Assembly: GCA_016874755.1 (NCBI GenBank)
Contig: VGTH01000022.1
Location: forward strand, 19,421 to 83,420
DNA length: 64,000 nt
Origin: Deltaproteobacteria bacterium
Lineage (GTDB): Bacteria > Desulfobacterota > Binatia > UBA9968
Reading direction: 5' to 3'
A model generated the notes under the pieces. That model ran no database searches, had not been told where the DNA came from, and worked only from the letters and a program-made list of their open reading frames with translations. This document shows positions 32,907 through 45,841 of the stretch, one piece after another; the stretch's first letter is position 1, and every line of letters begins with the position of its first letter. The translations under genes and the position numbers were made by a program.

Positions 32907-34745
32907 ATGGCCGCAACCTCTGACACTCGACAGCTTAGCTGGACGCTCGCTTGGGCCGTGGTTTTCTGCGACATAGGCACTTCGGTCTACTACGTCCCGG
33001 GTATTTTGTACGGCAACGTCGGCGACAAGACTCCGTTTTTCATTCTTCTGACCACCCTCGGCTTCATTCCGCTAGCGCTCAAGTACATTGAGATTACCTG
33101 GCGCAACCCAGAGGGCGGCGGCGTCGTCACGATCACGACTAAGGCCTTTGGTCCCATGTGGGGTTGCCTGGGCGGCATGCTGATCACTACCAGTTACTTT
33201 CTCACGGCGGCGATCTCAGCGGTTTCCGGGTTCCACTATATCGCCTCGGTGGTGCATGCGCTCGATAACTATATCGTCATATTGGCTTGCACCGGCCTGG
33301 TCGCACTGGCGATCTTGAACGTCATCGGCATTCGCGAAAGCGCCATGGCCGCGCTGATCATGGCGGTGGCGGCGTTTGGCGTCGATATTCTGGTCATTTT
33401 GTTTTCGGTCAAAGATTTCTCCGCAAGCCAGTGGACCCAGATGCTGCAGAGCCTCCAGCCTGGTCGTGAAATGCCGTTCCATAGTTTGCTCGTCGGCTTC
33501 GCCGCAGCGTGGCTGGCTTTCTCCGGCCTGGAAAGCATCAGCCAGCTGAGCCCAGCCATGCGCCTGCCGCTGCGCAAAACAACCCGCTGGGCGATGTACG
33601 GCGTCATGGCGAGCATGCTGATCACGGCGCCCATGTTAAGCCTGCTATCGATCAATCTGCTCGCGCCGGAGTTCAAGGCAACCCAGAGCGAGCGATTCAT
33701 TTCGCAAATCGCTTCGGTATCCGGCGGCTTTGGCTTGCAGCTGGCCGTGGTCGTCAGCGCTTCCAGCCTGCTGCTGTTTGCCGCCAACACCGCGATCATC
33801 GGCGCCTACCATGTCTTTCTCGCGCTCGCCAACACCGACTTTCTGCCGCGCGTCATCGCGCTGCGCAGCATTCGCTTTAACAGCCCGCACATCGCCATCA
33901 TCGTCGCCACCGTGGTGCCGATCGCGGTCATCGTCGCCACCAGCGGCGAGCTCGGCATCTTGGGCGAGATGTACGCGTTTGGATTGCTCGGTGCGTTTGT
34001 TTTTTCCTCGCTCAGCCTGGACATCATCCGCTGGCGCCTCGGCCGCCGCGACGTCGGCTTTTGGATCGGCGCACTGACCACGGTCATGCTTGCGGTGGCG
34101 TGGTGCGTCAATTTGGTCGAGAAAGAGCTGGCCACCCTCTTCGGCGGCGCGCTCACAATCCTGGGCATGCTCATCGCGGTGGGTGTGCGGCGTGCCTGGT
34201 TTGTCGATTTGCTCTCGCGGGTTCCCGCCATCCAGCGGCTGCAGGCACGCGCCTATCTCGCTTCGGAAGCGTTGGTGGATGACGAGCTCAAGGGCTTGGT
34301 CACACTGGCCGATGCCGCCGAGCTGAAAGCGCTTTATCCCGGCTCCACGCTCGTGGCGCTGCGCGGCGAGACCCCGGCGCTGCTCCAACAGGCGATCCAC
34401 ATCGCCAAGGGCAAAGGCGAAACCGCGCTGTATTGCATCTACGTCGAGGAGTGGCCCGGTTTGCTTAACGGCAACACGCCGCACCGTCCCAATGAGGAAG
34501 GCATTCGCACGCTGCGTTTCGCAGTCCAGCATCTGCGCGGCAAGAACGTCGAAGTGATACCCATCTGGATGGTGTCGCACAACGCCGCCGACGCCATTGC
34601 TTCGGCCGCCAAAGCACTCGACGTCGAGAGTGTTTTGATCGGCCAGTCGCGCCGCTCGGCGTTTTATCACATGCTGCGCGGCCATGTCGTCAAAGGGCTC
34701 ACCAGGAAACTGCCGCGCGATTGCCACCTGATGATCTTCAACTGA
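32907..34745 (+). CDS. APC-family amino-acid permease fused to C-terminal universal stress protein (UspA) domain
   Basis: 12 TM helices. About 150-aa USP C-terminus (ALYCIYVEE...LIGQSRRSAFYHMLRGHV). 612 aa. Confidence 0.8.
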   Translation: MAATSDTRQLSWTLAWAVVFCDIGTSVYYVPGILYGNVGDKTPFFILLTTLGFIPLALKYIEITWRNPEGGGVVTITTKAFGPMWGCLGGMLITTSYFLTAAISAVSGFHYIASVVHALDNYIVILACTGLVALAILNVIGIRESAMAALIMAVAAFGVDILVILFSVKDFSASQWTQMLQSLQPGREMPFHSLLVGFAAAWLAFSGLESISQLSPAMRLPLRKTTRWAMYGVMASMLITAPMLSLLSINLLAPEFKATQSERFISQIASVSGGFGLQLAVVVSASSLLLFAANTAIIGAYHVFLALANTDFLPRVIALRSIRFNSPHIAIIVATVVPIAVIVATSGELGILGEMYAFGLLGAFVFSSLSLDIIRWRLGRRDVGFWIGALTTVMLAVAWCVNLVEKELATLFGGALTILGMLIAVGVRRAWFVDLLSRVPAIQRLQARAYLASEALVDDELKGLVTLADAAELKALYPGSTLVALRGETPALLQQAIHIAKGKGETALYCIYVEEWPGLLNGNTPHRPNEEGIRTLRFAVQHLRGKNVEVIPIWMVSHNAADAIASAAKALDVESVLIGQSRRSAFYHMLRGHVVKGLTRKLPRDCHLMIFN

Positions 34746-34827
34746 ACGCTGCCAGCCCCTACGCCTTTAGTGCGATTGAATCTCAATGCCGGCGATTCTA
34801 TATTGCCAGTCCACGCGTGCACACGTC

Positions 34828-36666
34828 ATGCAGCCGACTCACGACACTCGCCAGCTCAATTGGTTTTTGGCTTGGGCCGTTGTCTTTTGCGACATTGGCA
34901 CTTCGGTCTACTACGTTCCCGGCATCATGTATGGCCATGTCAAAGATGCCACGCCGTTCTTTGTGCTGCTGACAACCGCCGGCTTCATTCTACTCTCGTT
35001 CAAATACATCGAAATCTCCTGGCGCAACCCCGAGGGCGGTGGCGTCGTGACGATCACCTCGAAAGCCTTCGGCCCCATGTGGGGTTGCCTGGGCGGCATG
35101 CTGATAACCGTCGATTATTTTCTTACGACCGCGATCTCGGCGGTCTCGGGCTTTCAATATCTCGGCAGCGCCTTCCCTGCCCTCGATTCACATATCGTCC
35201 TTTTGTCCTGCGCCGGCGTCGGCGTGCTCGCGGCATTGAATATCGTCGGCATCCGCGAGAGCGCCGCGGTCTCGCTGGTGATGGCCTGCGCGTCTTTTCT
35301 CGTTAATCTCGTCGTCATGGGCGCGGCGTTTGCCTATATGGATGGCGCCCAATGGCAGACAGGTCTCAGCAAGCTCGGCACCGCCAAGGGGATATCTTCC
35401 TACGAACTGCTGGTCGGCTTTGCATCGGCCTGGCTGGCGTTCTCAGGCCTCGAAAGCATCAGCCAGTTGAGCCCGACCATGCGCCTGCCGCTGCGCAAAA
35501 CTACTCGTTGGGCGATGGGCGCCGTGATGTTTACCATGGTGGTCACTTCGCCGATGTTGACCGCGCTTTCGATCGGCCTTTTGCCGGAACATTTCAAAGC
35601 CACCGAAAGCGAGCGCTTCATCTCCGAACTCGGCTCCATCGTCGGCGGGTTGGGCGTGAAATTGGCGGTGGTGTTGACCGCTACTAGCTTGCTGCTGTTT
35701 GCCGCCAACACGGCGATCATCGGCGCCTATCACGTGTTTCTCGCCTTGGTCAAAGGCGACTTCATGCCGCGCATCTTGGCGGTGCGCAACACCACATTTA
35801 ATTCTCCACACATCGCCGTGGGAATAGCTACGATTGTCCCGGTGCTGATCATCCTCATGAGCGGCGGCCAGATGAAAATTTTGGGCGACATGTACGCCTT
35901 CGGTTTGCTTGGCGCGTTTGTCTTTTCTTCGCTCAGCCTCGACAAGATTCGTTGGAACCTGGGCCGGCGCGATATCGGGTTTTGGCTGGGATTTTTAACC
36001 ACAGTAATGGTGATCGTGGCATGGGGCGTAAACCTGATCGAAAAACAGCTCGCCACTTGGTTCGGCGGCGGCGTCACACTGCTCGGCCTATTGATCGCCA
36101 TGGGCGTGCGGCGCGCCTGGTTCGTCGATCTACTCGTCCAGATTCCGTTTATTCAGAAGCTACAAGCGCGCGCCTATCGCGCCTCGGAAGACTTGGTCGA
36201 AGATGAGCTCAAAGGTCTGATGACGCTCACCGAAGCGGTGGAAGTAAAGCCGCTCTACTCGTCGACCACGTTGCTGGCGGTGCGCGACGATAGCCCGAGC
36301 CTGGTCCAAGAAGCGGTCACGCGCGTCAAGGGCAAAGGCGAAGCGGCGCTTTATTGCATTTACGTCGAGGAATGGCCGGGCTTGTTTGCCGGCGAGACGC
36401 CCCATGTCCCTAACGAGCAAGGCGTGCAGACGCTCAAGGCCGTGCTGCAAAACGCGCGCGCCAAGGGCGTCGAGATCGTGCCGATCTGGGCAGTGTCGCA
36501 CAACGCCGCCGAAGCGATCGCCAACGCCGCCAAAGCGCTCGACGTCGACTCGGTGATCATCGGCCAGTCGCGCCGCTCGGCGTTTTATCACATGCTGCGC
36601 GGCCACGTGATCAAGGGATTGATGAAAAGACTGCCGCGGGATGTTCACTTGATGATCTGCAATTGA
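34828..36666 (+). CDS. APC-family permease-USP fusion, tandem paralogue of 32907-34745
   Basis: Roughly 65-70% identical by eye, including the shared RNPEGGGVVTIT...KAFGPMWGCLGGMLIT and USP tail. ATG at 34828. Confidence 0.8.
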   Translation: MQPTHDTRQLNWFLAWAVVFCDIGTSVYYVPGIMYGHVKDATPFFVLLTTAGFILLSFKYIEISWRNPEGGGVVTITSKAFGPMWGCLGGMLITVDYFLTTAISAVSGFQYLGSAFPALDSHIVLLSCAGVGVLAALNIVGIRESAAVSLVMACASFLVNLVVMGAAFAYMDGAQWQTGLSKLGTAKGISSYELLVGFASAWLAFSGLESISQLSPTMRLPLRKTTRWAMGAVMFTMVVTSPMLTALSIGLLPEHFKATESERFISELGSIVGGLGVKLAVVLTATSLLLFAANTAIIGAYHVFLALVKGDFMPRILAVRNTTFNSPHIAVGIATIVPVLIILMSGGQMKILGDMYAFGLLGAFVFSSLSLDKIRWNLGRRDIGFWLGFLTTVMVIVAWGVNLIEKQLATWFGGGVTLLGLLIAMGVRRAWFVDLLVQIPFIQKLQARAYRASEDLVEDELKGLMTLTEAVEVKPLYSSTTLLAVRDDSPSLVQEAVTRVKGKGEAALYCIYVEEWPGLFAGETPHVPNEQGVQTLKAVLQNARAKGVEIVPIWAVSHNAAEAIANAAKALDVDSVIIGQSRRSAFYHMLRGHVIKGLMKRLPRDVHLMICN

Positions 36667-36732: not shown

Positions 36733-37884
36733 CTACAACCCCAACCATCGGGCAATAATATTGCGCTGTATCTCCGAGGTGCCCGAGTAGAGCGTGCTGC
36801 CGATGGCGTCGCGCAGCGCCCGTTCCATTTCGTATTCCACCATGTAGCCATTGCCGCCGTGAATCTGCACGGTGCCTAAAGCGGTTTGCACGAGGGATTC
36901 GCTGACAAACAGCTTGGCCATCGCCGCGTCGAGGGAAACCGTTTTGGTTTTATCCAAGAGCGAAGCGGCTTTGTAGACCAACAGGCGCGCCGCTTCGAGC
37001 TGCACTTTCATATCGGCGATGCGATGGGAAATCGCCTGATACTTGGCGATGGTCTGACCGAACTGTTTGCGTGACTTCGCGAAGGAGATGCTCTGCTCCA
37101 TCAGCCGCTGCGTCGTGCCGACGTGGCTGGCAAATAGACAAACCCTCTCCCAATCCATCGCGTGGGTAAAAATCGCCGTGCCGGCGCCGAGTCCGCCGAG
37201 GATCGCCTCCGGCCCGACCCTGACGTCGTCAAACACCAGCGCGCCCAGCGGCGCCGTGCGCAGGCCCATTTTCTCGAACGTCTGGGTGCACTGGAAACCG
37301 GGCGCGCCCTTTTCGACCAGAAAAGCGCTGATGCCGCCGTAGTAGCCCTTTCCCGGATTGGTGACGGCAAAGACGATGACAATGTCGGCGACCGGCGCGT
37401 TGGAGATAAAAGTCTTGGTGCCTTTGATGCGGTAGCCGCCGTTGCCGTCGGGCTCGGCTTTGGTTCGCATGGCAAATGCGTCCGAGCCGGACTCCGCTTC
37501 GGTCATGGCGTGGACACCAATCAACTTGCCATTGCAAAGATCGGCGAGATAGCGTTTTTTCTGTTCGGCGTTGCCGAACTGCCAGATCGGAATAACGCAG
37601 GAGAGCAGATGCGCGCAGATGGAAAAGACCAGGCCGCTGTCGCGGCAGCCATGGCCCAGCGCTTCGAGCGCGATCGCCGTCGTCAGTGGATCCAAGCCGC
37701 TGCCGCCGTCCTCCTCGGGCACCGGCAAACCTTGCAAGCGCATTTCTCCGGCTTTGAGCCAAAGCTCGCGCGCAAACACATGATCGCGATCGCGCTCGAG
37801 ATTGTCGCGGTTAAGCTCTTTGGCAGCGAACCTGTCGATGGTCTCGCTTAAGATTTGCTGTTCTTCTGAAAGGGAGAAATCCAT
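36733..37884 (-). CDS. Acyl-CoA-dehydrogenase-family flavoenzyme
   Basis: Full ACAD fold, 383 aa (ESGSDA...; GTSEIQRNIIARWLGL C-terminus). The usual YEG catalytic-Glu position reads YSG. RBS aaggag. Confidence 0.9.
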   Translation of the reverse strand: MDFSLSEEQQILSETIDRFAAKELNRDNLERDRDHVFARELWLKAGEMRLQGLPVPEEDGGSGLDPLTTAIALEALGHGCRDSGLVFSICAHLLSCVIPIWQFGNAEQKKRYLADLCNGKLIGVHAMTEAESGSDAFAMRTKAEPDGNGGYRIKGTKTFISNAPVADIVIVFAVTNPGKGYYGGISAFLVEKGAPGFQCTQTFEKMGLRTAPLGALVFDDVRVGPEAILGGLGAGTAIFTHAMDWERVCLFASHVGTTQRLMEQSISFAKSRKQFGQTIAKYQAISHRIADMKVQLEAARLLVYKAASLLDKTKTVSLDAAMAKLFVSESLVQTALGTVQIHGGNGYMVEYEMERALRDAIGSTLYSGTSEIQRNIIARWLGL

Positions 37885-39443
37885 CCAGGGCGCTCCTTGA
37901 GCTTCTGGTAATCGATTTTATCAGTGGAAGTCTTCGGCAGCGCGGCCTCAAAGACGAACTCGTCCGGCGCCATGTAGGGCGGCAAGACGTCGACACAGAA
38001 TTTTTTTAGCTGAATGATCGACGGCCGTTTACCGTCGTGGCAGCTCAGAAACGCGCGGATGCGCACGCCGGCCTCTTGATCGGCCAGCGCCAGCACCGCC
38101 ACTTCCTTCAGCATCGGATGGCGATAAAGACCCGCTTCGATCTCGCCCAGCTCGACCCGGTAGCCGCGCCGTTTCACCATGCGGTCGCGCCGCCCGGCAA
38201 AAAGGTAATCGCCGTCGGGCTGCTCGACGACGATATCGCCGGTGCGATACCACGGCCCATCGGCGCGATCGAGAAAAGCGCGCGCGGTGTTTTCGGCAAG
38301 ATTCCAATAACCTGCGGTAACCGCCGGCCCGGCGATGCACAGCTCGCCGCGCTCACCGGCTTTGACGACCGCACCGACTTCGTCCACCGCGACGGCGCGC
38401 AAGTGCTCGCAGGTTTTGCCGATGGGAAACGGCTCGGTCCGCTCTGGCGGTATTTGCGACGGCACTTCGTAGTAGGTGCAAACATTGGTTTCCGTCGGCC
38501 CGTAAAGATTGAAATAGCGCGGCCTGGGCCAGCGCTCGCACAACGCGCGCAGGTGCTTGACCGGAAACACTTCGCCGGCAAACAACACCAGGCGCAGTGC
38601 GCTGTAGTCATGGTTTTCCAGGCGGCCGTACTGCACGAGAAAGCTCAAAATCGACGGTGCCGAGTACCAAATCGAAATGCGTTCGGCGGCGATCAGCGGC
38701 GCAAGCTTTTCCGGCTCCTTGCCGATGTCCTCAGGGATCAACACCAGCGTGGCGCCGCTCGACAAGCTGAGAAAGATATCAAGAATCGATAGGTCGAAAT
38801 GAAACGGCGCGTGGGACGAAAAGCGATCCGCCGCCCTCGGATCAAACGCATCGGCGCACCAATCGACGAAACTCATGGCGTTGCGGTGCGAGATCATCAC
38901 CCCTTTGGGTTTGCCGGTGGAGCCCGACGTGTAAAGGATATAGGCGAGTTCGTCTAGCTGCGGCACAGCAACAGCGCGCACCTTGTTCAGAGCTTCGGCC
39001 GCGATGCCTGCCACAACGTTGTTCAGCCCTTGCCCGGCGCCGACGTCATCGACGGCGATAAACTCCGGCTGGCCGCCCAGGGCCGCGATTTCCTTCGCCA
39101 GGCCGTCGGCAAGTTGCCTTTCGCAAACCACGACTTTGACGCCGCAATCGTTGAGGATATAGCCGCCGCGCGCGAGCGGCGCGTTGAGGTCGACGGGCAC
39201 GTAAGCCGCGCCCGCTTTCAAAATGGCCAAAAGCGTCGCCAGCGAGTCGATGGACTTATGCAGAATGAAGCCGACACGGTCGCCGGGCGCGACACCCAAC
39301 TGCAACAAGCGAGCGGCGAGCGCAGTGCTCAGTCGATCGAGCGCCCCATAGCTCATCGAGCCGCGTCCCGGCGCGACCACCGCGAGCGCTGCCGGGTGCG
39401 CCCGAGCACTCTCGGCAAAATATTCGTGCAACGACCTTTTCAC
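37848..39443 (-). CDS. Amino-acid adenylation enzyme (DltA-like stand-alone A domain)
   Basis: A3 motif YTSGSTGKPKGV, A5 FNLYGPTE and A10 core. About 531 aa with no FAAL-type insertion. GTG start with RBS gaggtgg. Overlaps the ACAD start by 37 nt. Confidence 0.85.
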   Translation of the reverse strand: MKRSLHEYFAESARAHPAALAVVAPGRGSMSYGALDRLSTALAARLLQLGVAPGDRVGFILHKSIDSLATLLAILKAGAAYVPVDLNAPLARGGYILNDCGVKVVVCERQLADGLAKEIAALGGQPEFIAVDDVGAGQGLNNVVAGIAAEALNKVRAVAVPQLDELAYILYTSGSTGKPKGVMISHRNAMSFVDWCADAFDPRAADRFSSHAPFHFDLSILDIFLSLSSGATLVLIPEDIGKEPEKLAPLIAAERISIWYSAPSILSFLVQYGRLENHDYSALRLVLFAGEVFPVKHLRALCERWPRPRYFNLYGPTETNVCTYYEVPSQIPPERTEPFPIGKTCEHLRAVAVDEVGAVVKAGERGELCIAGPAVTAGYWNLAENTARAFLDRADGPWYRTGDIVVEQPDGDYLFAGRRDRMVKRRGYRVELGEIEAGLYRHPMLKEVAVLALADQEAGVRIRAFLSCHDGKRPSIIQLKKFCVDVLPPYMAPDEFVFEAALPKTSTDKIDYQKLKERPGWISPFQKNSKS

Positions 39444-39454
39444 GACGCTCCACC

Positions 39455-39712
39455 TCAGCCCAATTTGCTTTCCACCAGTTTGCCGATGCGTGCGATCGAG
39501 TCGAGATGCTCGATGTCGACCTCGTGGGCTTGAAGCTTGATTTTGTAGCGGTCCTCGACGAAGGCAACCAATTTCAACGTCGCCAGAGAGTCCAAAATAC
39601 CGCCGCTGATCAGCGGCGTCGCCTCGGTCAACTCTTCGGGATCTTCGCCGGGCAAAAATTCTTTAAGAATGTAATCTTTTAGTCCTTTGACAATTGCTTG
39701 GGTTTCCGCCAC
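39455..39712 (-). CDS. Carrier protein (DltC/PCP-like) with phosphopantetheine attachment Ser
   Basis: GGILDSLATLKLV has the DSL attachment motif. 85 aa. GTG start with RBS aaaggag. Confidence 0.7.
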   Translation of the reverse strand: MAETQAIVKGLKDYILKEFLPGEDPEELTEATPLISGGILDSLATLKLVAFVEDRYKIKLQAHEVDIEHLDSIARIGKLVESKLG

Positions 39713-39724
39713 TGGGGGCTCCTT

Positions 39725-42247
39725 TTACCGGGTGCTCTTGGAAAACAGCGCTGCCACACGTTGATCTTTGTGCTCTTTCAGAATCGTGTAAAGCCGTTCG
39801 GCCACCAGGCGGTGGCCGTTGGCATTTGGGTGATTGTCCCAATCGGCAATCCGCAGCGTATTGATCTCGTGGCCTTGATAGACGTCGCTGAGATCGGCAA
39901 CGACAAACCCCGCGGCGCGCGCGATGCGCAGAATTTCCGGGGTCTCCTCGACCCAATCGCCCTGTTCGACCTGGGGTAAAAACAAGAACAGCGGCACGAT
40001 GCCGCGCTCACGGCACTCGTCGACGATGTAGCGATAGGTCCAGGTGAGAATTTCATGGCGAAACGGCATCAGCCGGCGCGTGCCGATGGCCTCGGCCGTT
40101 TTCGGCGGCACCGCCGCTTTAGCGATGATTTCGCGCAGCGGCGCGAACGGCACGGCGATGTTCTTCGCGGTCACTTCCGCCAGATATGACGCCGATCGTG
40201 ACGCCTCGCGGCCTGTGGCCACGTAGAGCACCGCGTTGGGCGCAAAGGAATAAGCTTTTTCGACCACCAGCAGCTGCTGCACCGGCTGATAGCCCGGCAC
40301 CGCCATATTGAGAATTTCGTAGCGTTGATACGGTTTGCCCACGTTATTTTGATTGAGACGTTCTTCAACCAACGCTTCGAAGGTTTCATTATCGCGCACG
40401 CCCCAGCCCATCACGGACGAGGCGCCGAGTAGTGCAATCCGATAAGTGTTCGGCGCCGGTTTGGCTTCGTAGTCTTGGTCGCGCATGCCCCAACGGTTGG
40501 TGCGCACTGGGCCGTGGCTCGACATCGCGACAAAGGACGGAACCAATTCCCTATGAAGAAAATCTCCGGTAAAGCGATCCAACCCAGTGCCAGCCACGTC
40601 GAGCCAGGTCGACGGCCGGTTCATATACAACTCCCAGAGTTGGCTATTGAAGCGCTCCACCCGGTTCAAGTTTTCGTAGTAGCCTTTTTCCATCATCGCC
40701 ACGTCGAGCCGGCTCAGCCGTCCCGAGCGCAAGGTGTTGACGAAAGTAGCCGCCTGCGGCCCCAGATGCAGGTAAACCTCCTGAATGCCGGCCAGCGCAA
40801 GCGCCGCAAGAAACACCACATTGCCCACCGTCGCGCGGTTAAATAGCGTGGCGGGCGGGCGCTTGAGCTTCGACTGTTTGTCGCGGTACACGGAATATTC
40901 AGCGCCCAGCGACAGCACCAAAACGATGGCGAGCAAAAGCCCAACGGTCTTCACGGTTATCTTGTTTGCGGTCTCCCACAACGCGAGCCACTCCTCCACG
41001 GTTTCGCTCGACCACAGCGACCACAAAACGCAAATCAAAAGAAACATGCCGGTCGTGTTGAGCGCGCGCCGCAGGAACGGCACGAACTGGAAGCGGTACT
41101 TGCCCACGCTGCGCTCACGGCCGTGCTTCATCTCGTAAAGCGAATTGCCGACGACAAACAGCGCGAGGATGCCCCAGAACAACGCATCGGGGCCGGACAA
41201 CAACACCGTGCCGCGCAGCCAGAACCACTGGTAAGCGTGCAGCACCCAGGTCATGAAAAAAACAAAAAGCGTCGACAGCACGATGGCGCGTAGATCGCCT
41301 TTGGCGCGCAGTTTGAAATAGACCGGGTAGTAGAAAAGCTTCATCATGAAGTCTTTCCAATAGATGTTAATTCGGCGCCAAAAATCGGTAAAGCTCGACG
41401 ACAGATAATAAAGGTGGTGCGTCTCCGGCAGGTTGAAGCCGAACAAACGCAATAGACCGATGATCAGGTGGAACTGGCCGGAGATTCGCAGATAAAGCAG
41501 AAAGTTCGAGACGATGAATTGGAGCAAATCCCCTGAGTTGGCGATCTCCGTGGGTGCTACGGTCAGATAATAATAGACCAGACGGTAAAGGATCAGATGG
41601 ACGACACCGCGCGTCATCCAGACAATCGCCTGCTGGTAGCTGGCATGTTCTTCGGCATCGAAATAGTTGCGGCGAAAGGCCTTGTAGTCCACCACCGGAT
41701 ACATGGGAAAGCACACGTTGGGCAGCATGAAAAAGTAGGAGAATGCGCGCGGCCAGGAAAATGGTTCGTTTTCATGGGCCTGATCGTAAACGTAGATCAT
41801 CAAGCGAAACATGAACATGGCGCCTAGAATCGGCCAAATCGCCGGCGACCACGGAGCCGGCAACCAACCGACCCGCAGCAACGCTAGAAGAGCGGTGGCG
41901 CACAAAAGCAAGCCCACCCGCGCCCGCATACTGAACGGGAGATGACAGATCGTGATCAACATGCAGCCCAGGCCAATTAACCAAGCCGCTTGAACCGGCC
42001 CGAAAATAAGGCCAATACCGACAACAGAAAGGAGGGCAAAAAAGGGCAGCTTTAGGGACAACGGCAGAAAGTAGTGAACAGCGAACCCACCGAAAGCCAA
42101 AACGATAATACGAACAAATGCGCTGCTTTCGATCTGAAACTGCCGGATCGTGACCAGCAGTAAGAAAAGCTGCAGACCAAGTAGGATGAACCGTGACAGT
42201 CGATCACGAAGGGTGGAACTACTCGCAGTAGATTCACGGTTGTCCAT
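39725..42247 (-). CDS. Fusion of MBOAT-family membrane O-acyltransferase (DltB/AlgI-like) with C-terminal SGNH/DltD-like periplasmic domain
   Basis: N-terminal ~480 aa are polytopic with FGFNLPE...SSSFTDFWRRINIYWKDFMMKLFYYP, an MBOAT core (WRRWH reads WRRIN). C-terminal ~350 aa have SGNH blocks (LLGASSVMGWG ... DWDNHPNANGH). Confidence 0.75.
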   Translation of the reverse strand: MDNRESTASSSTLRDRLSRFILLGLQLFLLLVTIRQFQIESSAFVRIIVLAFGGFAVHYFLPLSLKLPFFALLSVVGIGLIFGPVQAAWLIGLGCMLITICHLPFSMRARVGLLLCATALLALLRVGWLPAPWSPAIWPILGAMFMFRLMIYVYDQAHENEPFSWPRAFSYFFMLPNVCFPMYPVVDYKAFRRNYFDAEEHASYQQAIVWMTRGVVHLILYRLVYYYLTVAPTEIANSGDLLQFIVSNFLLYLRISGQFHLIIGLLRLFGFNLPETHHLYYLSSSFTDFWRRINIYWKDFMMKLFYYPVYFKLRAKGDLRAIVLSTLFVFFMTWVLHAYQWFWLRGTVLLSGPDALFWGILALFVVGNSLYEMKHGRERSVGKYRFQFVPFLRRALNTTGMFLLICVLWSLWSSETVEEWLALWETANKITVKTVGLLLAIVLVLSLGAEYSVYRDKQSKLKRPPATLFNRATVGNVVFLAALALAGIQEVYLHLGPQAATFVNTLRSGRLSRLDVAMMEKGYYENLNRVERFNSQLWELYMNRPSTWLDVAGTGLDRFTGDFLHRELVPSFVAMSSHGPVRTNRWGMRDQDYEAKPAPNTYRIALLGASSVMGWGVRDNETFEALVEERLNQNNVGKPYQRYEILNMAVPGYQPVQQLLVVEKAYSFAPNAVLYVATGREASRSASYLAEVTAKNIAVPFAPLREIIAKAAVPPKTAEAIGTRRLMPFRHEILTWTYRYIVDECRERGIVPLFLFLPQVEQGDWVEETPEILRIARAAGFVVADLSDVYQGHEINTLRIADWDNHPNANGHRLVAERLYTILKEHKDQRVAALFSKSTR

Positions 42248-44992: not shown

Positions 44993-45841
44993 CTACGGAT
45001 TCTTCCGGCAGAACTCCAACACCCAATCGCAAATCTTCCGGGTCGTCTGCTCCGGCGGCATGACGTTGCGAAAATCACTTTTCGGCAACAGCTCGCGCAG
45101 ATAGTGCGCGCCGGAGGTGGCGTGCGAGGCATCGTCGCCGGGAATAATCAGCGCCGGCGCTTTGACGCCCAGCACTTCTTCAGGTTCGGCGCCGGTGGCG
45201 GTATCGCGGTCATATAATGTCCGGCCACTGGTGACGATCAAGCTCAAATAGCGATCGAGATCTTGCTTGGCGAAACTCTCGGCGAACTCTTTACTGCGCG
45301 CGATGCTGGTCGCCCACGGCCCAGCTTCCGGGTCGAGCCAAAACGATTTACCGCCGCGCGCCCGTTCGATGACACCATTGATGCCATTCTGCTTGGCGAA
45401 CTCGTAATGGCGCATGAAGCGCGCCTGGCTGTTCACTTTCCAACGATAACCGCCCACCGGCCAGTGTAAAATCAGACCGCGCGTCGCCTCGGGATAATGC
45501 ACACCGACGGCCAGCGCCACCGAACAGCCCATGCAGCCACCCATGACGTAGGCGGAGCCCAGCTTCAAATGATCGAGCAGCGCTTTGCCGTGCTGCGTGT
45601 AGCTCGCCCAGCTCAGCCGCTCGACTCGACCGCCCGACTGGCCGCACTCGCGCCGGTCGTAGAGAATGACAGCATGCTCCCGCGCCAGCGCCGCGATGGC
45701 ATCGATGCCGGTCCAGGCGCTGGCAACACGCCACTTATCGATGGTCGCGTCAAAGCCGCCTGGCGCGCACATCAAGATCGGCGTCCCCGAGCCGTGAACT
45801 TCATAGTAAGTTTCGATGCCATCGACCGTCACTGTCGGCAT
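44993..45841 (-). CDS. Alpha/beta-hydrolase fold protein
   Basis: HGSGTPILMCAPGG oxyanion region and nucleophile elbow GGCMGCS. 282 aa. Confidence 0.75.
   Translation of the reverse strand: MPTVTVDGIETYYEVHGSGTPILMCAPGGFDATIDKWRVASAWTGIDAIAALAREHAVILYDRRECGQSGGRVERLSWASYTQHGKALLDHLKLGSAYVMGGCMGCSVALAVGVHYPEATRGLILHWPVGGYRWKVNSQARFMRHYEFAKQNGINGVIERARGGKSFWLDPEAGPWATSIARSKEFAESFAKQDLDRYLSLIVTSGRTLYDRDTATGAEPEEVLGVKAPALIIPGDDASHATSGAHYLRELLPKSDFRNVMPPEQTTRKICDWVLEFCRKNP

Follow-up and report, generated by a model that had tools for sequence, protein, structure and literature searches.

A 64,000-nucleotide stretch of contig VGTH01000022.1 (assembly GCA_016874755.1, a deltaproteobacterium of the class Binatia), referred to here in its entirety as the window, contains an operon that raises an unusual question. 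Its four genes have the layout of a Dlt system, the Firmicutes pathway for D-alanylation of teichoic acids, and one of them encodes a flavoenzyme of the acyl-CoA dehydrogenase (ACAD) family. What would such an operon make, and where would the product go? Our analysis indicates that it is probably a self-contained system that places a proline-derived heteroaromatic acyl group on an extracytoplasmic acceptor, and that it apparently represents a widespread and uncharacterised variant of envelope acylation by membrane-bound O-acyltransferases (MBOATs) and SGNH-domain proteins. An earlier reading of the locus, made from its letters alone (the sequence-only reading), described four co-directional, tightly packed genes on the minus strand. 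All of the open reading frames (ORFs) are present as described, including the GTG start of the adenylation gene and its overlap with the ACAD gene:

39725..42247, minus strand: MBOAT–SGNH fusion gene, 840 aa, first in the operon; ORF with ATG start
39455..39712, minus strand: carrier gene, 85 aa, type II peptidyl carrier protein (PCP); ORF with GTG start
37848..39443, minus strand: gene for a stand-alone adenylation enzyme, 531 aa, PltF-like, predicted to be L-proline specific; ORF with GTG start
36733..37884, minus strand: gene for an ACAD-family flavoenzyme, 383 aa, predicted prolyl-S-carrier dehydrogenase; ORF with ATG start

The fusion and carrier genes are separated by 12 nt and the carrier and adenylation genes by 11 nt, and the adenylation gene shares 37 nt with the ACAD gene.

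Predicted loading and oxidation of proline on a carrier protein

The adenylation enzyme, which bears AMP-binding and AMP-binding_C domains (Pfam), passes the amino-acid adenylation domain model TIGR01733 (373 bits against a cut-off of 317). This rules out a fatty-acyl-AMP ligase and upholds the earlier assignment of the protein to the amino-acid type. Its description as DltA-like did not survive. The best single-domain relative in the Protein Data Bank (PDB) is PltF (6o6e, 362 bits), with the best DltA at approximately 226 bits, and the scores against the DltA models TIGR01734 (287.4 bits against 559.85) and NF003417 (298.5 bits against 476) are well below their cut-offs. PltF is the L-proline–[L-prolyl-carrier protein] ligase of pyoluteorin biosynthesis.

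Within the region that determines specificity, PltF leads with 141.8 bits, followed by a match at 83 bits. The sequence-only reading had suggested prediction of the specificity code as a check; the ten Stachelhaus residues, anchored on core motifs, are D-L-L-Y-L-A-L-V-C-K and coincide with those of PltF at all nine positions covered by the HMMER alignment, where the aligned DltA differs. Among 58 aligned adenylation-family ORFs of related loci, 43 carry the code DLLYLALVCK, 11 carry one-position variants, and the remaining four are unrelated second ligases of those loci. These sequence comparisons lead us to predict a PltF-like enzyme specific for L-proline.

The carrier retains the conserved serine context expected of a phosphopantetheine site:

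39587-39589, minus strand: phosphopantetheine site Ser42 of the carrier, in GGILDS42LATL

The Pfam PP-binding match is weak (18.7 bits against a cut-off of 20.8). In the PDB the best matches are the carrier chain 6cxt_A, which was co-crystallised with the dehydrogenase chain 6cxt_B, together with PltL and PigG; DltC is weaker, and the DltC models are missed (NF003464, 21.8 bits against 68; TIGR01688, 16.2 bits against 52). The closest curated carrier family is NF052616 ('ACP_for_OlsHI'), the acyl carrier protein (ACP) for OlsHI in ornithine lipid biosynthesis. Its cut-off of 130 bits is not reached by the window carrier (120.6 bits), nor by any of nine carriers from cassette loci in other phyla (98-126 bits); all of these scores are slightly below it and far higher than those with any other ACP model. 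OlsHI is described as a three-gene operon without an ACP, and the acyl donor is left open (PMC12493201). No GH3-family (OlsH-type) gene was found in the gene calls of four related loci or among the scanned window genes. Alpha/beta hydrolases do lie nearby in one related locus (L081) and at 44993-45841 of the window, approximately 2.7 kb from the operon, in neither case adjacent to the cassette or accompanied by a GH3 gene. The sub-threshold carrier scores and the lack of a GH3 gene among the genes scanned do not support membership of the OlsHI pathway, and no link to OlsH or OlsI was found.

The third protein contains all three ACAD domains (Pfam), and its top NCBIfam matches are PigA (455.7 bits, cut-off 500) and RedW (415.5 bits, cut-off 650). 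The top three distinct PDB proteins are AnaB (4irn, 351 bits), a PigA-type L-prolyl-PCP dehydrogenase (5zw0, 328 bits) and 6cxt_B (296 bits). Each of these outranks every acyl-CoA dehydrogenase in the PDB, with butyryl-CoA dehydrogenases at 250-270 bits. One residue of the active site could be placed by alignment:

37147-37149, minus strand: Glu246 codon of the ACAD, aligned with a glutamate of AnaB

That glutamate is Glu244, which we take to be the catalytic base of AnaB. Like AnaB, the ACAD reads YSGT; the corresponding YEGT motif of medium-chain acyl-CoA dehydrogenase (MCAD) presumably holds the catalytic glutamate of that enzyme, which is replaced here by serine. We predict from these sequence features that the ACAD is a prolyl-S-carrier dehydrogenase, in agreement with its earlier placement in the PigA/PltE/RedW class of enzymes that act on a carrier.

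Could the ACAD instead be a housekeeping beta-oxidation enzyme that sits beside the other genes by chance, or in this genome only? ACAD domains are common, and generic butyryl-CoA dehydrogenases do match the protein at the scores just given. Against this, its best matches are all carrier-protein-dependent prolyl dehydrogenases, the MCAD-type glutamate is replaced, the gene overlaps the adenylation gene by 37 nt, and its linkage to the cassette is found in 50 of 57 informative loci (defined below) across more than ten phyla. Overlap, linkage and matches all contradict a housekeeping role, which we regard as extremely improbable; such a role would have counted against the sequence-only reading. 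For the donor side of the system as a whole, the sequence evidence makes it very likely that proline is loaded and oxidized on the carrier.

An MBOAT and an SGNH domain in one polypeptide

The 840-aa protein joins two domains and an intervening segment:

40853..42247, minus strand: MBOAT membrane domain, aa 1-465, with invariant H260, WRRxN294 and H337 (Foldseek and alignment)
41237..41239, minus strand: codon of His337, the candidate catalytic MBOAT histidine, in the context LHAYQWFWLRG (invariant in 84/84; codon checked)
40583..40762, minus strand: region that connects the last membrane helix with the SGNH domain, aa 496-555, with invariant G522-Y523-Y524-E525 at 40673-40684, containing the candidate acyl-shuttle tyrosine or tyrosines
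39758..40582, minus strand: SGNH/GDSL domain, aa 556-830, with Ser610 at 40418-40420 and Asp804/His806 at 39830-39838 (Pfam, Foldseek and alignment)

That a single polypeptide combines these two domains, as first proposed from sequence, is borne out by fold search, Pfam and invariant residues, with a different kind of evidence for each half. For the N-terminal half, the proposed check with the Pfam MBOAT model came out negative: aa 1-465 matched no Pfam family up to E=10, and a profile of the family built from 20 sequences retrieved no DltB from the PDB sequences, giving one marginal SGNH match only. The assignment comes from structure prediction. We used an AlphaFold2 model based on a 119-homologue alignment (pLDDT 83.7, pTM 0.74); an earlier model based on a 20-sequence alignment was unusable (pLDDT 64.9, pTM 0.40). 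When this model was compared with the PDB by Foldseek, DltB ranked at the top (8jem and 6bug, E 7e-7 to 2e-6, probability 1.0), followed by HHAT, PORCN, LPCAT3, DGAT1 and MBOAT7, all of them MBOATs; HHAT, PORCN and others likewise reach probability 1.0. As modelled, the N-terminal domain is thereby confirmed as an MBOAT fold that is closest to DltB. H260, N294 and H337 are unchanged in 84 of 84 homologues drawn from more than ten phyla. A histidine is universally conserved in MBOATs (PMC12148441), and by analogy His337 is the candidate for the catalytic histidine. For a DltB-type MBOAT that accepts its acyl group from a carrier, then, we find a fold nearest to DltB and a carrier gene that is always linked, yet no match to a DltB or Pfam MBOAT profile.

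The identity of the C-terminal half as an SGNH domain was sustained by sequence and fold together. Lipase_GDSL_2 (Pfam; cut-off 32.9 bits) matches aa 607-814 at 30.6 bits in the whole protein and at 33.5 bits in the isolated half, and Foldseek returns SGNH esterases, which are the best matches, and PatB. Pfam DltD gives no match on the fusion protein. The serine, aspartate and histidine of the active site are invariant: S610 is unchanged in 84/84 sequences, as are N647, Y523 and Y524, and D804 and H806 are unchanged in all 80 of the sequences that extend over them. Five of the 19 residues in the loop preceding the last membrane helix (aa 449-467) are lysine or arginine; by the positive-inside rule, everything after residue 495, including the SGNH domain, should therefore lie outside the cytoplasm. 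From this sequence feature we infer an extracytoplasmic SGNH domain.

In DltB and PatA systems, the acyl group is passed to the tyrosine of an FXYXXF hexapeptide before the SGNH partner takes over (PMC12148441). By analogy, Y523 or Y524, in a stretch that looks flexible in the model, may serve as an intermediate acyl carrier or shuttle residue in the fusion protein. We found no small ORF conserved across loci that could represent a DltX-like microprotein. In a single locus, from an Anaerolineaceae metagenome-assembled genome (MAG), a 60-aa membrane microprotein is encoded just upstream of the carrier gene (L070 1537-1719, plus strand). It ends in ...GPFIYTLF, an exact FXYXXF as in DltX and PatA.

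The deposited NCBI protein for the fusion (P0002, 745 aa, 100% identity) begins at Met96 of the 840-aa ORF, skipping the codons at 41962-42247 of the window (minus strand). Eight family-invariant positions fall within the skipped residues 35-95 (R35, Q36, F37, E40, F55, L61, F70 and G94), and the public annotation therefore appears to be N-terminally truncated.

Conservation of the cassette, and putative tailoring genes

We sought to determine how widely the operon occurs. A pattern scan of one genome per species placed the fusion protein in at least 594 species, spread over more than ten phyla, and a HMMER search returned at least 1,080 clusters at 50% identity (E<=1e-30), of which the best 150 are nearly all near full-length fusions, with approximately ten shorter, partial members. 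There are more than 3,400 fusion homologues, and the best 120 of them are nearly full length at 53-89% identity. The hosts belong mostly to diderm phyla and include Acidobacteriota, Burkholderiales (many of them Accumulibacter), other Gammaproteobacteria, Alphaproteobacteria, Gemmatimonadota, Anaerolineales, Planctomycetota, Verrucomicrobiota, Binatia, Calditrichota and Rhodothermales. Several hosts have been cultured, among them Pseudothauera rhizosphaerae, Methylomonas subterranea, Paraglaciecola arctica, Pelomicrobium sp. G1 and Microvirga sp. VF16.

A survey of four-gene synteny, which the sequence-only reading had called for, gave a clear result. Of the 57 loci with sufficient flanking sequence to be informative, 50, from many phyla, contain all four genes; these are in the order of the window in 35 loci and permuted or divergent, yet adjacent, in 15. 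The arrangement is far beyond chance, and the fact that the genes stay together in many phyla despite rearrangement argues strongly for a functional unit. When the ORFs of 80 loci were clustered all against all, only these four genes and their shadow ORFs were conserved. No polyketide synthase (PKS), nonribosomal peptide synthetase (NRPS) condensation domain or thioesterase recurs beside the cassette, and the scanned window ORFs within approximately 15 kb on each side of the operon include no PKS, NRPS or condensing enzyme. In the rhizobial strain Microvirga sp. VF16 the cassette resides on the 1.39-Mb megaplasmid pMVF16-2 (record 705248-711495, L086), with the fusion gene divergent from the carrier, adenylation and ACAD genes; in the gene table of PLSDB this stretch is empty.

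These data bear on whether the operon could be a true dlt-type D-alanylation system in a diderm, like the Bordetella dra locus, with the ACAD merely adjacent. The architecture is the same, namely an adenylation enzyme, a small carrier, an MBOAT and an SGNH protein; DltB is the best fold match; the DltA and DltC models give sub-threshold matches; and many homologues are named 'DltB (MBOAT superfamily)' by JGI. Set against this likeness are the size of the shortfall in model scores (287 and 298 bits against 560 and 476 for DltA; 21.8 against 68 for DltC), specificity residues that are those of PltF and differ from the aligned DltA, and the lack of a Pfam DltD or MBOAT match and of a conserved DltX-like microprotein. 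Moreover, the ACAD gene is conserved with the other three across phyla and through permutations of gene order. Model scores, specificity residues and ACAD conservation thus contradict D-alanylation, and we give it next to no credence.

In seven loci (L018, L056, L062, L063, L065, L073 and L076) two neighbouring fusion paralogues occur, with 42-49% identity to the window protein. Where visible, a single adenylation and ACAD set accompanies them, which suggests two acceptors served by one donor.

The oxidation state of the acyl group is addressed by genes that accompany the cassette in some lineages. Clustering of neighbouring ORFs yielded one extra family, present in six loci, and six of its seven members contain both GxGxxG and WxWxIP, motifs of flavin-dependent halogenases:

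L065 10890-12233, plus strand: flavin-dependent halogenase
L070 7986-9296; L079 13343-14647; L058 13910-15289: flavin-dependent halogenases
L068 8553-9905; L025 4891-6117: flavin-dependent halogenases

The halogenase of the Pirellulales locus (L065), which also encodes two carriers as well as two fusion paralogues, scores 562 bits with Mpy16 and 559 bits with PltA, both of which chlorinate pyrrolyl-S-carrier proteins. In Methylomonas subterranea SURF-2 (L025 10829-14405), genes for a B12-radical SAM enzyme and for Rieske dioxygenase alpha and beta subunits lie between the carrier and adenylation genes. The products are possibly pyrrole-tailoring enzymes, and the locus recalls clorobiocin biosynthesis, where a radical SAM enzyme methylates the pyrrole. 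Halogenase and tailoring genes of this kind fit only an aromatic pyrrole on the carrier, and hence favour a four-electron oxidation, at least in those lineages.

Proposed pathway, acceptor and relation to known systems

Based on these observations, we propose the following pathway. The adenylation enzyme would activate L-proline with ATP and attach it through a thioester to the carrier's phosphopantetheine arm, a step with strong support from homology. The ACAD would then oxidize the prolyl-S-carrier, most likely by four electrons, to pyrrolyl-2-carbonyl-S-carrier, as homology and halogenase co-occurrence suggest; this is the reaction of PltE, PigA, RedW and Bmp3. The loaded carrier would dock on the MBOAT domain from the cytoplasmic side, in the manner of DltC and DltB, and the acyl group would cross the membrane with His337 as catalyst, a step proposed from fold, invariant residues and conserved gene linkage. 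Tyr523 or Tyr524, just past the last membrane helix, could be the first acyl acceptor, taking the part played in DltX and PatA by the FXYXXF tyrosine. Finally, the acyl group would move to Ser610 of the SGNH domain and from there to a hydroxyl (or amine) group on a component of the envelope, which could be an exopolysaccharide or another surface glycan, peptidoglycan, or the head group of a membrane lipid. We consider transmembrane transfer by the fusion protein likely. That the acceptor is a polymer we hold with low to moderate confidence. The broadest form of the proposal, in which bacteria of more than ten phyla decorate an envelope component with pyrrole-2-carbonyl esters that are halogenated or methylated in some lineages, is tentative and in our judgement falls a little short of an even chance. 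Of the course set out in the sequence-only reading, a carrier-loaded amino acid, its dehydrogenation on the carrier and MBOAT/SGNH transfer are thus supported computationally, and esterification of a polymer is still conjectural.

Several points weigh against this pathway, and we take them up in the order of its steps, every one of which rests on homology, fold and synteny. On the donor side, no PCP-specific NCBIfam model is passed by the carrier, the ACAD remains under the equivalog cut-offs of both PigA and RedW, its best match, AnaB, stops at a two-electron oxidation, and the window has no halogenase. In two Acidobacteria MAGs (L084 10001-14905 and L069 1-4194), the fusion, carrier and adenylation genes are present with the proline code retained, and no ACAD gene is found in 10 kb downstream (L084) or about 6 kb (L069). 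In the ACAD's place, both loci have a hexapeptide-repeat transferase, within a sugar-nucleotide and glycosyltransferase cluster. In the fusion protein, the exact FXYXXF motif is absent, and aa 511-553, which include the GYYE segment, are modelled with low confidence. As for the acceptor, the nearest curated family of the carrier, the ornithine-lipid ACP, could point to lipid chemistry. The genes around the operon in the window are housekeeping ones (arginyl-tRNA synthetase, RNase J, FtsK and a MiaB-like enzyme) and do not indicate an acceptor. Neither do the 99 immediate neighbours surveyed with Pfam at 68 loci, among which none of 114 families occurs more than three times, nor a limited tblastn survey, in which glycan genes lie near approximately 21 of 85 loci.

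One alternative is that the group transferred is not a pyrrole. A two-electron oxidation would give a pyrroline or dehydroprolyl-carrier, and loci without an ACAD would transfer plain L-proline, in either case as a cationic ester akin to D-alanylation. The standing of AnaB, a two-electron prolyl-ACP oxidase, as the best solved match of the ACAD (351 bits) favours this alternative, as do the two loci that keep the proline code with no ACAD within the sequence covered, and the lack of a halogenase in the window. It is harder to reconcile with the PltA/Mpy16-type halogenases, which need a pyrrolyl-S-carrier and accompany the cassette in several lineages, with top NCBIfam matches to the four-electron enzymes PigA and RedW, and with retention of the ACAD in 50 of the 57 informative loci. 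We therefore judge a non-pyrrole group to be quite unlikely.

A second alternative keeps the donor and changes the target: a diffusible small molecule or a membrane lipid would be acylated, to give a secreted pyrrole ester or a lipid capped with pyrrole, or the SGNH domain would act as a hydrolase and free pyrrole-2-carboxylate would be exported. Pyrrole modules of this kind are otherwise known from small-molecule natural products, as the PltF, PigA, RedW and 6cxt matches illustrate, and the halogenase, radical SAM and Rieske genes of some loci resemble secondary metabolism. In addition, most loci, the window included, have no glycan genes nearby, and the curated family nearest to the carrier is an ACP of a lipid pathway. 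Hydrolases are also frequent among SGNH proteins, and esterases head the fold matches of the SGNH domain. What tells against it is that no PKS, NRPS condensation domain or thioesterase recurs beside the cassette, that a transmembrane acyl relay seems overly elaborate for the export of a simple acid, that polysaccharide clusters, in part of the XrtA/PEP-CTERM type, surround a quarter of the loci, and that every characterised bacterial MBOAT–SGNH pair acylates cell-envelope polymers (PMC12148441). We rate a non-polymer target as unlikely, though it is the more serious of these two alternatives to acylation of an envelope polymer with a pyrrole.

Some of the related loci lie within glycosyltransferase-rich or XrtA/PEP-CTERM polysaccharide clusters, and four encode an XrtA/PEP-CTERM priming glycosyltransferase. 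Because the neighbours are unrelated from locus to locus, the cassette behaves as an autonomous module. This fits a widely shared acceptor, such as peptidoglycan, a common lipid or a glycan, equally well as a strain-specific exopolysaccharide. At one locus (L081 969-9023), the cassette adjoins an exosortase-A-type gene set with a second AMP-ligase, a pyridoxal phosphate (PLP)-dependent decarboxylase, a second PP-binding protein, the two alpha/beta hydrolases of that locus and a polysaccharide pyruvyl transferase.

The closest relatives of the donor genes belong to the thiotemplated pyrrole pathways (PltF/PltL/PltE, with PltA, of pyoluteorin; PigI/PigG/PigA; RedM/RedO/RedW; Bmp1-4) and to AnaC/AnaD/AnaB, all of which employ the same three-protein set as the operon. 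The PltF code is identical, the best PDB and NCBIfam matches of the three proteins come from these pathways, and some cassette loci have PltA/Mpy16-type halogenases. In the known pathways the pyrrolyl-carrier feeds a cytoplasmic PKS, NRPS or condensing enzyme that leads to a small molecule, whereas here the sole conserved partner is the MBOAT–SGNH fusion. A precedent for an ester is found in clorobiocin and coumermycin biosynthesis (CloN1-7/CouN1-7), where a proline adenylation enzyme, a carrier and an ACAD supply a pyrrolyl-2-carbonyl group that is esterified onto a sugar hydroxyl. There, transfer is cytoplasmic, by soluble acyltransferases and onto a small-molecule deoxysugar, and no membrane MBOAT takes part.

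With Dlt (DltA, DltC, DltB, DltX and DltD) the operon shares a logic that runs from adenylation enzyme to carrier, MBOAT, SGNH protein and envelope. Dlt is the sole characterised bacterial MBOAT system with a carrier-protein donor (PMC12148441). The operon differs in its predicted use of L-proline rather than D-alanine, in the added on-carrier oxidation and in having the MBOAT and SGNH domains in one polypeptide; it lacks a DltX microprotein and an exact FXYXXF, its proteins fall outside the DltA, DltC and DltD models, and its hosts are mostly diderm. Among the features that define membership of Dlt, the operon has the fold and no other. Since three of its four genes belong to thiotemplated pyrrole biosynthesis, 'dlt-like' describes its architecture only.

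Systems that resemble the fusion protein alone use a different donor. PatA/PatB (peptidoglycan O-acetylation), AlgI/AlgJ/AlgX (alginate) and WssH/WssI (cellulose) share the invariant MBOAT histidine and an extracytoplasmic SGNH Ser/His/Asp triad, but they draw on acetyl-CoA, have no carrier and consist of separate MBOAT and SGNH proteins. In such diderm pairs, FXYXXF lies at the MBOAT C-terminus and a tyrosine relay links the two active sites (PMC12148441); in the operon studied here the domains are fused, the donor would be an acyl-carrier and the invariant motif is GYYE(N)L. The AT3–SGNH fusions (OatA and OafA/OafB) likewise combine a membrane acyl-translocating domain and an extracytoplasmic SGNH domain in one polypeptide, and an acyl-tyrosine intermediate has been described for OatA (PMC12148441). 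They differ in having an AT3 membrane domain instead of an MBOAT and in using acetyl-CoA as donor, and neither a carrier nor an adenylation enzyme is involved. It has been generalised that the proteins of MBOAT/SGNH systems are separate, with SGNH fusions involving AT3, and that pathways other than Dlt have no carrier (PMC12148441). The MBOAT–SGNH fusion family breaks both generalisations.

In the full-text literature that we searched, with subscription literature outside its scope, we found neither the cassette nor pyrrole-2-carboxylate attached to polymers of the envelope. If our proposal is correct, the cassette would add a new kind of acyl group, a carrier-made aromatic heterocycle, to the acetyl, D-alanyl, glycyl and succinyl groups known from envelopes, and would represent wholesale recruitment of 'natural-product' pyrrole chemistry for cell-surface modification. 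A Dlt-style relay from carrier to MBOAT would then not be limited to Firmicutes or to D-alanine, and the cassette would be the first carrier-protein-dependent MBOAT system besides Dlt and would contain the first natural MBOAT–SGNH fusion with an assigned role. Surface hydrophobicity, recognition by phages and predators, metal binding and biofilm matrix properties might all be affected. Since the fusion carries the two active sites together with the putative shuttle tyrosines on a single polypeptide, it would be a convenient model for the passage of acyl groups across a membrane. The cassette is common in poorly studied bacteria of environmental or technical importance, among them the polyphosphate accumulator Accumulibacter, methanotrophs, soil Acidobacteriota and marine Gammaproteobacteria. 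Our survey also draws attention to hundreds of 'orphan' pyrrole modules, which could otherwise be taken for natural-product clusters in genome mining.

The genes flanking the operon in the window had been taken as signs of an envelope and transport neighbourhood. The domain content reported for them is correct, with two tandem paralogues, each an APC-family amino-acid permease with a C-terminal universal stress protein domain, at 32907-34745 and 34786-36666 (both plus strand). Their relevance is another matter: neither the permeases nor the YhhQ gene nor an amidohydrolase gene of the window recurs beside the cassette among 80 related loci, and the permeases and YhhQ consequently carry no supporting weight. 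Rfam gave no family at gathering score anywhere in the 64-kb window, and a scan for promoters and terminators was uninformative, with promoter matches near the shuffled expectation. The base composition of the operon is ordinary relative to the rest of the window.

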